NCBI GenBank assembly: GCA_903842085.1
Contig: CAIMLA010000043.1
Location: 1,563 to 65,562 of the forward strand
Direction: 5' to 3'
Length of the DNA: 64,000 bases
From: an uncultured bacterium
GTDB lineage: Bacteria > Patescibacteriota > CPR2 > UBA1875 > CAIMLA01
Part shown: positions 5,619-47,307 of the stretch, piece by piece
Layout of the letters: every line of letters begins with the position of its first letter
Position numbering within the stretch: the first letter of the stretch is position 1
Translations under genes and position numbers: made by a program
Notes under the pieces: model-generated
Seen by the model: only the letters and a program-made list of their open reading frames with translations
Database searches by the model: none
Told to the model about the DNA's origin: nothing

Positions 5619-5798
5619 ATGGCAAAATTTAAGGTCAATCAAGAAGTGTGTATTGGTTGTGGAACTTGCGTGAGCTTATGTCCAGATTGTTTTGAACTGA
5701 ATGATGAAGGTAAGTCGCATGTTATTTTAGAAGAATGTGATTGTGACTCCGCTGAAATTGTAAATGACTGTCCGGTTCGAGCTATAACTGTAGAATAA
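5619..5798 (+). CDS. Small 4Fe-4S ferredoxin (59 aa)
   Basis: Not in the ORF track (under 60 aa). ATG with GGAGAAAAA RBS. CIGCGTCVSLCP plus C..C..C...CP cysteine clusters characteristic of a small ferredoxin. Confidence 0.7.
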   Translation: MAKFKVNQEVCIGCGTCVSLCPDCFELNDEGKSHVILEECDCDSAEIVNDCPVRAITVE

Positions 5799-5799
5799 A

Positions 5800-6480
5800 A
5801 TGGATGATTTTGACGAAAAGACGGGCTCTAATGATAAGATTTGGAAAATAATCACTGCTTTGGCTGTCGTTCTTTTTGTCGTTGCAATAGTCTTTGTCAT
5901 TATCTTTGGTCTTCGGGTTCAAAGTAATAATAAGATAAAAGACCAAGAAATCTCCGCCAATCTTAAAGCTCAGGAAAAGGTCTTAAGAAATGAATTTCTG
6001 CAAGAAACAGAGTCAGATGATATTCAATATACAACCTCTCCTTACTTTGGCAGTCTAAAATTTAGTTATCCAAAAATTTGGTCAACAAATATTGCGATCA
6101 ATGAAGGCTCAGGAGAAGAATTCATCTTTATGGCTGACCCCAACTTGATCGAAATAAATGAAAAAGCTGCCTATACCCCAACTGCGCTTAAAGTAACCAT
6201 CAATAAAGACCGTTATGAGACCGTTTTGAAAAAGCTTGAGGACAAAAATAAAAGCGCCAAAGCGCCGTATAAGTGGACTGAAGCCGATACAGTTGTTTCA
6301 GAAATAAAAGGAAAGGTTTTCTCTGGATTGTACAGCAAGGAGAACCCAAACCGCTATATTATGGTTTTGGTTCCGTATCGAGACAAGACCTTGATCATTA
6401 GCACTGATGGTAGCACCACCGAGGATACCTATAAGAGCCAATTTGAAAAGACCTTAAGCTCATTTGAACTCAGAAAATAA
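5800..6480 (+). CDS. Hypothetical N-terminally membrane-anchored protein (paralog family member 1)
   Basis: Single N-terminal TM helix. Extracytoplasmic domain begins with YFGSLKFSYPKIW, a motif shared with the ORFs at 19233 and 46396. Confidence 0.6.
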   Translation: MDDFDEKTGSNDKIWKIITALAVVLFVVAIVFVIIFGLRVQSNNKIKDQEISANLKAQEKVLRNEFLQETESDDIQYTTSPYFGSLKFSYPKIWSTNIAINEGSGEEFIFMADPNLIEINEKAAYTPTALKVTINKDRYETVLKKLEDKNKSAKAPYKWTEADTVVSEIKGKVFSGLYSKENPNRYIMVLVPYRDKTLIISTDGSTTEDTYKSQFEKTLSSFELRK

Positions 6481-8633: not shown

Positions 8634-9092
8634 CTAATCGGCAGGTTTTGGTTTGAGTTTTTTTACAGCAGGAACTTTGATCGTGGTAACGTAATTGTTG
8701 CCTTCTTTTTTCAGATTAATTGTGCCACCGATGCGGGCCAGAAGTTTTTTGGCGATCATTAAACCCCGACCGTGACAACGAAGCTCGTCTCCGGGCTTGT
8801 CTTCTTCTTTGACGCAATCTAGGCCATTGCCATTAGGTGAGTCTGGGTTGATAATTTGTACCGTTAACCCCGCATCATCTCTAACAATAGTGGCTGAAAC
8901 ATCACAGCCGCCATAGAGAAGGCCATTACTGACCGCCTCACTAACAGGGACGGTTACGCAAAGCACGTCTTTTGGATTAATGATACTTAGGGCCTCTTCT
9001 GCCGCCGCATCTCTTATAATGGCCATTGGACTTTGACCGGTTTCGTTTTCTTCTGAGTGTAAATCTAGCTTATAACGACGGGTGATAATCAC
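8634..9092 (-). CDS. GHKL/HATPase-type anti-sigma regulatory factor-like serine kinase (RsbW/SpoIIAB-like)
   Basis: 152 aa. N-box-like SEAVSNGLL, then RDDAGL, then G2-box HGRGLMIAKKL, in the GHKL order. Size matches RsbW/SpoIIAB. No adjacent STAS or sigma-factor gene. Confidence 0.55.
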   Translation of the reverse strand: MIITRRYKLDLHSEENETGQSPMAIIRDAAAEEALSIINPKDVLCVTVPVSEAVSNGLLYGGCDVSATIVRDDAGLTVQIINPDSPNGNGLDCVKEEDKPGDELRCHGRGLMIAKKLLARIGGTINLKKEGNNYVTTIKVPAVKKLKPKPAD

Positions 9093-16465: not shown

Positions 16466-16493
16466 AAAAAACTCCATAACTATGGAGTTTTTT
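16466..16493. terminator. Bidirectional intrinsic terminator (A5-ACTCCATA-AC-TATGGAGT-T6)
   Basis: Perfect hairpin flanked by an A-run and a T-run, placed between the convergent SBP gene (+) and the tRNA operon (-). Confidence 0.65.
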
Positions 16494-16579
16494 GGTGCCC
16501 GAGGCGGGACTCGAACCCGCAAGATGTCACCACCAACGGATTTTAAGTCCGTCGCGTATACCAATTCCGCCACCCGGGC
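16494..16579 (-). tRNA. tRNA-Leu (anticodon TAA), long variable arm, CCA encoded
   Basis: Reverse complement GCCCGGGTGGCGGAATTGGTATACGCGACGGACTTAAAATCCGT...GGGTTCGAGTCCCGCCTCGGGCACCA. Anticodon loop CTTAAAA. Confidence 0.85.
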
Positions 16580-16624
16580 ATTAGATTTAAGCAAAACCAA
16601 ACGAATCAGGAAGCCCCATCAATC

Positions 16625-16699
16625 TGGAGGCCTCGCCCGGAATTGAACCGGGGTGAACGGTTTTGCAGACCGCTGCGTAAACCACTCCGCCACGAGGCC
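16625..16699 (-). tRNA. tRNA-Cys (anticodon GCA), CCA encoded
   Basis: Reverse complement GGCCTCGTGGCGGAGTGG...GCGGTCTGCAAAACCGT...CCCGGTTCAATTCCGGGCGAGGCCTCCA. Anticodon loop CTGCAAA. Confidence 0.85.
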
Positions 16700-16706
16700 A
16701 TTTATA

Positions 16707-16782
16707 TGGAGCGAGAGACGGGGCTCGAACCCGCGACCTCAACCTTGGCAAGGTTGCGCTCTACCAGCTAAGCTACTCTCGC
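16707..16782 (-). tRNA. tRNA-Gly (anticodon GCC), CCA encoded
   Basis: Reverse complement GCGAGAGTAGCTTAGCTGGTAGAGCGCAACCTTGCCAAGGTTGAGGTCGCGGGTTCGAGCCCCGTCTCTCGCTCCA. Confidence 0.88.
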
Positions 16783-16819
16783 AAACACACGTGGACTAGA
16801 TTACGTCGAGATTGATTTA

Positions 16820-16895
<76 letters not shown>

Positions 16896-16963
16896 TTATT
16901 TTCTTTTTCTTCTTACTAAGATTCTTCTGGCGATAAATAACGTCCAGATCAATCTTGGTAAAA

Positions 16964-17040
16964 TGGTGGGCGATGGGGGATTCGAACCCGCGACCTCCTC
17001 GGTGTAAACGAGATGCTCTAACCAGCTGAGCTAATCGCCC
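16964..17040 (-). tRNA. tRNA-Val (anticodon TAC), CCA encoded (exact 5' end +/-1 nt)
   Basis: Reverse complement GGGCGATTAGCTCAGCTGGTTAGAGCATCTCGTTTACACCGAGGAGGTCGCGGGTTCGAATCCCCCATCGCCCACCA. Anticodon loop TTTACAC. One apparent C/C mismatch in the T-stem. Confidence 0.75.
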
Positions 17041-17077
17041 CGATATCAATGTTCAATTGACTCGTATCCCTTAACTT

Positions 17078-17164
17078 TGGTGCGGACGAGAGGACTTGAA
17101 CCTCCAAGACCTTTCGGTCACTAGCACCTCATGCTAGCGCGTATACCAATTCCGCCACGTCCGC
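17078..17164 (-). tRNA. tRNA-Leu (anticodon GAG), long variable arm, CCA encoded
   Basis: Reverse complement GCGGACGTGGCGGAATTGGTATACGCGCTAGCATGAGGTGCTAGTGACCGAAAGGTCTTGGAGGTTCAAGTCCTCTCGTCCGCACCA. Confidence 0.8.
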
Positions 17165-19232: not shown

Positions 19233-19913
19233 ATGGAAGAAACTAAAGAAAAAGTGAATTTAAGAAGATTAGTCATCACGATTGTTTTGGTCTTGATAAC
19301 CGCGATCGTGGTCGGTGGTTTGGTTTGGTTTTTGATGGATAGGCAAGCAAAGCAAACGCAGTCAGATAATGAAAAGTCACTTAAAGAGTTAGAAAACACT
19401 ATCGGAAAGACAAAGACACAAGAAAATGAACCCGAAACGGTGGTTACGGATGAGTTTGCATCTTGGAAAACTTTCTATGGACCTGGCTTCACCATAAAAT
19501 ATCCGGGGGAGTGGAAAATTGAAGAAAACTCAACGAATACCAACTTAGTATTCGCAAAAACAAACGTAGTTTTTACTAATATACCAAAAAATTATTCCAT
19601 ATCATTAAATTATGGAGAATTATATGGACGTGGTGGGTCATGTGTTATGCGAAACATAAATTATGAAGCTAAAGAAGTTGTAAATAAAATCGTATTAGAA
19701 CCAAAGGGTGACATTTCAACTGTTTCCTTACCTGACGGCGAGATGTGTGGTGGCCAAGTCCTAAAAGGATTTGTTATTTCTACAAACTGGTTTAATTACA
19801 GCAATAAAGAATTATTTGGCTATTCATATGGCGCGAGTAGTGATAAATCGCTCTCAGACGAAGCAAATGTATATTTTAAAAAAATAATCGAAACTTTGTC
19901 TAAATCTTCGTGA
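19233..19913 (+). CDS. Hypothetical N-terminally membrane-anchored protein (paralog family member 2)
   Basis: N-terminal TM, then WKTFYGPGFTIKYPGEWKIEE motif and a C-terminal YFKKIIETLSKS shared with the ORFs at 5800 and 46396. Confidence 0.6.
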   Translation: MEETKEKVNLRRLVITIVLVLITAIVVGGLVWFLMDRQAKQTQSDNEKSLKELENTIGKTKTQENEPETVVTDEFASWKTFYGPGFTIKYPGEWKIEENSTNTNLVFAKTNVVFTNIPKNYSISLNYGELYGRGGSCVMRNINYEAKEVVNKIVLEPKGDISTVSLPDGEMCGGQVLKGFVISTNWFNYSNKELFGYSYGASSDKSLSDEANVYFKKIIETLSKSS

Positions 19914-19923
19914 AGGAATAAAG

Positions 19924-19951
19924 AAAAAAGGCCTGATCTGGGGCCTTTTTT
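19924..19951. terminator. Intrinsic terminator-like hairpin (A6-GGCC...GGCC-T6)
   Basis: AAAAAAGGCCTGATCTGGGGCCTTTTTT directly after the 19233 ORF stop. Confidence 0.55.
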
Positions 19952-19953
19952 GA

Positions 19954-21954
<2,001 letters not shown>

Positions 21955-46395: not shown

Positions 46396-47307
46396 TTGGC
46401 TAAAAAAACAACGAACAACAAACAAAGAGTAGAACCAAAAAACAAACCGACGGTTAAAGACGATCAAGCCGGGAAACCAGAGGACGACGATGGTGAAGTC
46501 GATCCAGCGGCGACCGAGAAAGCGTTTGCGGATGAACTTGGAACGATAGAAACAGAAGAGGAAGCAGATGGTGGGCCATTGAAATTCGATCCAGAGGCGA
46601 ACGACGAGCCAGAAGAAATTGCCAAAAAAGAAGCTCAGATGGTAACGGTACCGACACGAAAAGCGGTTCGACCTGCAATCTTTGGGCTAGGGGTCTTGAG
46701 CGGCATTATTATCGCTATGATTATTTTTGGTATTTATTATTACATGGTTGGCCAGGAGGTTTGTGATAGTTATAATAGCGTTACAAATTCTGAAAAAAAA
46801 TTAACTAGCTTAATCACGTCTCAAAATAATCGAGAAACAAAGATATCTGATGCTTGCCCAACAGTTCTAACAGAAACTGATAATCTAGAAATAGCAAATT
46901 GGAAAACCTACAAAAACGAAAAGTCTGGTTTGTCTTTTTTGATCCCAGCCGATTGGCAGGAGTCTAAACCGGCCACGACTAATCAATTTTTCTTTAAAGC
47001 ACCAGGAGATGTTGCAGCGACGCTTAATGTCGGGATTGGGGAGGCGGCTTCGATCACAACGGTCGATGGCTATATTTTGAAAACAACCTCAACAGAAAAA
47101 GTTGCCTGTAATGCGGCCAAAGTAAAAACTTATGTTGATAGTAATCAAAACGAAGCAAACCGTATTAAAACAGCGACTTTTACGGCTTCTAGCACTCCTT
47201 ATCTATTTGAATACGCCTGGCAGACAAATATGGGAGCATCCGTCTCAAGCGACTATTCTGATCTCTTTGATTTGATCTTAAAGACAGTTAGTATCACAAA
47301 AGTGTAA
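46396..47307 (+). CDS. Hypothetical membrane-anchored protein with acidic N-terminal region (paralog family member 3)
   Basis: TTG start with AGGAGGG RBS. D/E-rich N-terminus, one TM, then NWKTYKNEKSGLSFLIPADWQE and C-terminal LFDLILKTVS motifs shared with the ORFs at 5800 and 19233. Confidence 0.6.
   Translation: MAKKTTNNKQRVEPKNKPTVKDDQAGKPEDDDGEVDPAATEKAFADELGTIETEEEADGGPLKFDPEANDEPEEIAKKEAQMVTVPTRKAVRPAIFGLGVLSGIIIAMIIFGIYYYMVGQEVCDSYNSVTNSEKKLTSLITSQNNRETKISDACPTVLTETDNLEIANWKTYKNEKSGLSFLIPADWQESKPATTNQFFFKAPGDVAATLNVGIGEAASITTVDGYILKTTSTEKVACNAAKVKTYVDSNQNEANRIKTATFTASSTPYLFEYAWQTNMGASVSSDYSDLFDLILKTVSITKV

Follow-up and report, generated by a model that had tools for sequence, protein, structure and literature searches.

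This work concerns a stretch of 64,000 nucleotides from an uncultured patescibacterium (contig CAIMLA010000043.1, positions 1,563 to 65,562 of the forward strand; hereafter the window) and three of its open reading frames (ORFs), here called p1, p2 and p3. An original prediction, made from the letters alone, had joined them into one expanded, lineage-specific family of surface proteins. Our comparisons indicate instead that p1, p2 and p3 are distant relatives, not the products of a recent expansion.

Three single-pass membrane proteins

All three ORFs, and the peptides quoted from them, are present at the predicted positions on the + strand. Their parts are as follows.

p1: 5800-6480, + strand; 226-residue single-pass membrane protein
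p1 N-terminal part: short acidic N-tail; transmembrane (TM) segment, residues 17-38 (nt 5848-5913); helical stalk, residues 39-70 (nt 5914-6009)
p1 predicted Mog1/PsbP-fold domain: residues 71-226, nt 6010-6477, + strand
p1 strand-turn motif LKFSYPKIW: residues 86-94, 6055-6081, + strand; beta strands 87-91 and 95-100 in the model
p2: 19233-19913, + strand; 226-residue single-pass protein with a stalk between anchor and ectodomain, probably PsbP-like
p2 conserved anchor module: residues 1-36; TM segment 13-35 (nt 19269-19337)
p2 ectodomain: motif FTIKYPGEW, nt 19488-19514; two conserved Cys (137, 172)
p3: 46396-47307, + strand; 303 residues, TTG start
p3 N-terminal region: 93-residue acidic, low-complexity or disordered tail, predicted to be cytoplasmic; TM segment, residues 94-119 (nt 46675-46752)
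p3 juxtamembrane segment, after the TM segment: highly conserved, containing Cys
p3 PsbP-family domain: residues 168-278, nt 46897-47229; motif LSFLIPADW, nt 46930-46956

Each protein begins with a charged tail followed by one strongly hydrophobic segment of 22-26 residues. A single helix per protein had been foreseen; the expectation that it would be N-terminal does not hold for p3, in which it follows the 93-residue tail. Nor does the globular domain open right after the membrane: a helical stalk of 35-60 residues separates it from the TM segment. None of the three sequences has a lipobox-type N-terminus. Downstream of the TM segment, p1 contains no Cys, p2 contains two and p3 three (123, 154 and 238).

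The literal pattern said to be common to the trio, [FY]-x-G-[FL]-[ST]-[FI]-x-[YI]-P-x(2,3)-W, is absent from all three proteins. A relaxed form, [FYILVM]-x-[FYILVM]-x-[FYILVM]-P-x(2,3)-W, picks out p1, p2 and p3 and no others among 49 window ORFs, compared to an expectation of 0.31 in residue shuffles (P(>=3)=0.003, a value that is optimistic, as the motif was defined post hoc). The motif starts at residue 86 in both p1 and p2, and lies 50-65 residues beyond the TM segment in all three proteins.

Fold and relatedness

To assemble the relatives of p1, we searched exhaustively with a profile of its ectodomain and recovered 98 representatives at E<1e-3, with the same architecture. By these profile matches, p1 founds an unannotated Patescibacteria family with 98 or more clusters (50% identity), mostly missed by current Pfam models. 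One TM segment is found in 96 of 100 family members, the distance from it to the motif is conserved (median 61 residues), and P91 and W94 of the p1 motif are each retained in at least 96% of members. Long N-terminal tails rich in Q, P, N and G, like the long tail of p3, are present in 13 of 100 aligned members.

AlphaFold2 modeling of p1 with only four close orthologs gave an unusable result (predicted local distance difference test score, pLDDT, 37), while the 98-representative alignment gave a pLDDT of 92.9 and a predicted template modeling score of 0.79. In this model, a continuous helix (residues 12-70) forms the TM segment and stalk, and the beta-rich domain that follows includes two helices (139-151 and 212-220). 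Foldseek comparison of the model to the PDB returned CyanoP and PsbP as the top matches (E about 1e-5), followed by Apa, Tsi3, BT_1490, DcrB, MTC28, Mog1 and EagT6. The modeled domain is built of an antiparallel beta-sheet with helices on its flanks and is significantly similar in structure to several solved members, and we conclude that p1 is predicted to have a Mog1/PsbP-like fold. The similar C-terminal helix claimed for the trio is real in the p1 model (H212-220), and the same segment is aligned by hhalign between the p1 and p3 families.

For p3, the original prediction that none of the proteins could be assigned to a named family does not stand. Against the Pfam PsbP profile (PF01789), p3 scores 26.4 bits at full length and 29.2 bits with the ectodomain alone (E=1.1e-6), compared to a gathering score of 23.5, with the match spanning profile positions 2-109 of 155. 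By this score p3 is a member of Pfam PsbP. The same profile gives no match for p1 or p2. The related model PsbP_2 (PF18933) has a gathering score of 27, which no trio member reaches: p2 scores 15.0 bits (E=0.025) and p3 17.5-22 bits, and p1 itself gives no match. Still, PsbP_2 is a top non-TM Pfam match in both p2 and its ortholog in the genome L009 (14.1 bits, E=0.047), independently, and is the only Pfam model matched by members of the p1 family (6 of 100 at E<0.01, best 7e-6). A p3 homolog, P0009, scores 26.7 bits. Sequence-profile searches of the PDB with the p1, p2 and p3 alignments yielded TM-type or chance matches only, and the NCBIfam hits of the trio were FliL-like, confined to the TM anchor and well short of the cutoffs. 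The early guess of a PsbP/DcrB-like fold is thus borne out for p3 by Pfam and for p1 by the model; for p2 it is probable, judging from profile similarity.

None of the three is a functional photosystem II PsbP. Against the NCBIfam PSII_PsbP equivalog, p3 scores 14.2 bits, where the cutoff is 60. Sequence identity to PsbP/CyanoP (PF01789; PDB 1v2b, 2xb3, 2lnj) and to the PsbP-like NDH subunit PnsL1 is 10-17%. PsbP/CyanoP proteins are soluble lumenal subunits or lipoproteins of photosynthetic hosts, whereas p1-p3 have an uncleaved TM helix plus stalk and come from a non-photosynthetic patescibacterium. DcrB (PDB 6e8a) and the mycobacterial proteins LpqN, Mtc28 and Apa (PDB 6e5d, 4pws, 5zx9) are likewise lipoproteins or secreted proteins with cleaved signal peptides, unlike the tethered p1-p3, and give no match to them at the sequence level. 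The fold predicted for p1-p3 is also that of the type VI secretion immunity proteins and chaperones Tsi3, TplEi, EagT6/SciW and PA0094. Eag chaperones are soluble cytoplasmic proteins, in contrast to the trio, and the window ORFs showed no type VI secretion genes. Non-photosynthetic bacteria are already well known to have PsbP-like domains. Our literature search turned up nothing on the present proteins in Patescibacteria. What is new here is a set of members, including the unannotated p1 family, of a superfamily that was itself already known.

How closely are the three related to one another? BLASTP gave E=0.041 for p1-p2, mostly from the TM segment and linker, 6e-4 for p2-p3 and no match for p1-p3; outside of the TM segment and linker, nothing was significant. 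A word-indexed search yielded very few homologs for the three proteins and almost none for the p2 ectodomain. Full-length hhalign values of 4e-5 and 1e-6 were discounted, as the score came from the TM segment and linker, and were replaced by ectodomain-only runs. For these, the p2 ectodomain profile was rebuilt with the syntenic L009 ortholog (59% identity). The p2 ectodomain then aligned to the p1 family with E=6e-5 (65% probability, z=9.3) and to the p3 family with E=6e-4 (z=6.5), over about 135 collinear columns that begin at the motif and extend into the C-terminal helix, at a low maximum-accuracy (MAC) threshold. The p3 and p1 families matched with E=3.8e-3 (z=5.1), the best local match being the C-terminal helix. 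None of 100 column-shuffled controls reached any of the three scores. Each family hidden Markov model (HMM) ranked another trio member second among 190 window ORFs, and searches of these ORFs revealed no further member of the trio families. These data argue for a similarity that is real but at superfamily depth, and only in that sense does the term paralogous family apply. Of the ectodomain comparisons, only the three between profiles fall below the E=0.01 threshold set by the original prediction. Weighing against even this distant relationship, HMM-versus-sequence cross-detection within the trio is insignificant (E=0.1-0.4).

The assignment of p2 is the least secure, since its Pfam matches are sub-threshold and vanish without the linker, leaving no match for the ectodomain alone. 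Conceivably, p2 is not PsbP-like at all and has converged on the motif (Φ-x-Φ-P-x-x-W, where Φ is hydrophobic) and on the anchor design, which would leave just p1 and p3 as relatives. In line with this, the early hhalign runs aligned only a 16-residue motif of p2, its ectodomain is nearly without homologs, and its anchor also carries unrelated ectodomains in the genomes L006 and L013 (below). With the L009 ortholog included, though, the ectodomain aligns end to end with both families, the scores surpass every shuffle, and the two orthologs point separately to PsbP_2. We therefore regard convergence as improbable, and p2 as a probable PsbP-like protein.

Genomic contexts and topology of p1

One further feature is needed here.

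Small ferredoxin: 5619-5798, + strand; 59 residues, single-cluster 4Fe-4S-type, strong Shine-Dalgarno

A single nucleotide separates the ferredoxin stop codon from the p1 ATG, and no obvious Shine-Dalgarno was seen just upstream of this ATG. Because of the close junction, p1 is probably translationally coupled to the ferredoxin gene. The slot trmD - small ferredoxin - p1 - uvrB is kept elsewhere (sister species, L017, 'Ca. Howlettbacteria'), and the junction of the Fer4 gene with p1 (0-9 nt) recurs in five lineages (L001-3, L015/16, L017, L020, L021). A DsbA-like gene lies upstream of the junction in L021. The protein is 69% identical to its sister-species ortholog, compared to 57-90% for its neighbors. 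Diversifying selection had been suggested as a check on the family; for p1, dN/dS (the ratio of nonsynonymous to synonymous substitution rates) is about 0.06 relative to an 86%-identical strain, with dS near saturation, and p1 is under purifying selection.

Over 10 lineages, the gene directly upstream of the p1-family member encodes Fer4 in five and belongs to a superoxide dismutase (SOD)/peroxiredoxin cluster in two, and in two others a sensor-less histidine kinase plus receiver lies directly downstream. Distant family members that are 35% identical to each other directly follow a peroxiredoxin - methyltransferase - Fe/Mn-SOD (- redoxin) cluster in L022 (575-2912) and L023 (53-2962). In L018 (3501-5411) and L019 (2535-4751), the family member, again a distant one, is followed by a soluble, sensor-less histidine kinase, a lone receiver domain and recO. 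These kinases are homologous, about 228 residues long, and consist only of the dimerization/phosphotransfer and catalytic domains (DHp+CA). The L018 family member is a TM-less HTH_3 fusion (P0060/P0112), resembling a one-component regulator with a PsbP-like domain. A HisKA match downstream of the p1-like gene of L023 was below threshold and was not counted.

Because of these Fer4, SOD/peroxiredoxin and kinase-receiver neighbors, a role of p1 in redox- or stress-linked sensing or scaffolding is suggested, albeit tentatively. Two observations temper it. The five Fer4 contexts represent orthologous synteny and are not independent, and gene spacing is tight genome-wide, so that the coupling of Fer4 and p1 may lack functional meaning.

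The trio had been called extracytoplasmic. For p2 and p3, this placement is supported by an excess of K+R on the N-side flank and by the conserved Cys after the TM segment, both of which argue for an N-in/C-out orientation. For p1, the direction is harder to read. Its own flanks do not favor N-in (K+R 3 versus 3; net charge -2 on the N-flank versus +1 on the C-flank), mean K+R in the family is equal on both sides (2.60 versus 2.52), and the soluble HTH fusion, having no TM segment, implies that the domain can act in the cytoplasm. Moreover, the recurrent neighbors (Fer4, SOD, peroxiredoxin and soluble histidine kinase) are all cytoplasmic. These points would fit a reverse signal anchor (N-out/C-in), with the domain on the cytoplasmic side of the membrane, binding the ferredoxin translated together with p1, or redox proteins of other kinds. 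Arguing for the opposite orientation, N-tails of 50-170 residues occur in 15 of 96 p1 relatives and are unlikely to be translocated; none of the 13 that were inspected opens with a hydrophobic segment at its N-terminus. Net charge in the family is higher on the N side (+1.39 versus +0.25), a slight N-in preference, and the domain is 8-fold Cys-depleted, resembling exported proteins of Gram-positive-type cells. Most PsbP-like bacterial relatives, among them DcrB, LpqN and CyanoP, are extracytoplasmic as well. On balance, the p1 domain likely faces outward, and a cytoplasmic location seems fairly unlikely. The HTH-fused relative was also considered as proof of N-in topology and rejected, as this protein has no TM segment.

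Locus variation and possible roles

The p2 gene sits between htpX and ligA, and part of this slot is exchanged between strains.

Strain-variable cassette: 19342-19997, + strand; p2 codons 37-226, a terminator/promoter spacer and the first ~10 ligA codons

In the strain L006, both flanks (htpX and ligA) are 97% identical to the window at the nucleotide level, and unrelated sequence (707-1242 in L006) replaces the cassette, covering the p2 ectodomain, the spacer and the start of ligA. On the left, the two sequences part exactly after p2 codon 36, where the TM segment ends. The replacement ectodomain, P0006, is 187 residues long and has no PxxW motif. In a different genome and genomic context, upstream of mraZ, the p2 anchor module (MDETKEKLNWQRL...GGTVWYLMD) carries a third ectodomain as a fusion, again unrelated (L013, 80-700). 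No Pfam family was found for the alternative ectodomains of L006 and L013. These comparisons suggest that one constant module of tail and TM segment is combined with different outer domains. Among sister species, the htpX-ligA slot is empty in L007 (4895-5120) and L008 (4895-4944), where htpX is 90% and 77% identical, and it holds the p2 ortholog in L009 (2409-3077; htpX 75%). Given this pattern of two vacant slots and one occupied, we conclude that p2 is an accessory gene of patchy presence. Of the trio, p2 alone behaves as a variable surface gene.

A syntenic ortholog of p3, P0116, is present in a sister metagenome-assembled genome (MAG). Because the two are only about 50% identical, p3 evolves faster than its neighbors. 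Within residues 1-155 (window 46396-46860) lies the most conserved part of the p3 family, the TM segment plus the juxtamembrane segment IIFG..YY...EVC..YN....SEKKLTSLI.SQ.NR., rather than in the PsbP domain, and Cys123, Cys154 and Cys238 are invariant.

A recent, lineage-specific expansion of paralogous surface proteins, perhaps under diversifying selection, would account for the common overall architecture, the shared length of p1 and p2 and their motif position, the second-place HMM rankings and the scores above all shuffles, but we consider it very unlikely: ectodomain similarity is near the detection limit, the 98 relatives returned by the p1 profile exclude p2 and p3, the p1-family signature (PKxWS, ALR, RDKT, TD) was not seen in p2 or p3 where the hhalign alignments were read, with no systematic check made, and the claim is unsupported for p1 and p3 because these are single-copy syntenic orthologs in sister species, and because p1 shows average divergence and a low dN/dS. 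Scans of viral contigs revealed no relatives of p2 or p3.

Taken together, we lean toward viewing p1, p2 and p3 as separate, anciently diverged Mog1/PsbP-like members that serve as membrane-tethered binding or adaptor modules on the outer face. In such a scheme, a single uncleaved TM helix would anchor each protein in the cytoplasmic membrane, and the helical stalk would hold its domain off the membrane. To our knowledge, Patescibacteria lack an outer membrane, and the domains would be displayed in a Gram-positive-type envelope. The fold binds proteins, lipids or ions in PsbP/CyanoP, DcrB, LpqN, Tsi3, Eag chaperones and Mog1, and we know of no characterized member that is an enzyme or has a catalytic site; because of this, p1-p3 are read, by analogy, as non-enzymatic. 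p1 might feed in a redox- or envelope-state signal or scaffold such a complex, while p2 would be an accessory protein of the cell surface that keeps a conserved anchor and has its ectodomain swapped through recombination.

Bolder versions can be imagined, and we regard them as doubtful. The p1-type domain could be an unrecognized signal-input module for redox or oxidative stress in Patescibacteria, as hinted by Fer4 coupling in one clade, SOD/peroxiredoxin adjacency in another and, elsewhere, pairing with a histidine kinase and receiver or fusion to HTH. In addition or instead, p2 could represent a surface-variation system with a constant anchor and exchangeable ectodomains, in which case the 36-residue module of tail and TM segment would act as a recombination handle for unrelated ectodomain cassettes. 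The trio is mostly ordinary, and the p2 cassette swap and the redox and kinase neighborhoods of p1 are most worth attention. At the p2 locus, strain-level variation of the cell surface is seen concretely in a genome of episymbiont type. Should the redox and kinase associations prove functional, the p1 family would give a lead into environmental sensing by these minimal cells. More generally, a fold can now be proposed for three 'hypothetical' envelope proteins (for p2, a probable one) of a poorly understood, host-dependent lineage.

The window is 40% GC, and its genes, on the + strand, are almost exclusively housekeeping ones. Its nearest public relatives are MAGs labeled Patescibacteria or 'Candidatus Saccharibacteria'. 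Between uvrB and uvrA lies a 152-residue minus-strand ORF (8634-9092), whose position and length are kept in sister species (L001-L003), where its counterpart has no Pfam match on record. Six clustered tRNA genes (Leu-taa, Cys, Gly, Phe, Val, Leu-gag; minus strand, 16493-17164) lie in the otherwise ORF-free gap from an SBP_bac_5 gene to a LysM gene.
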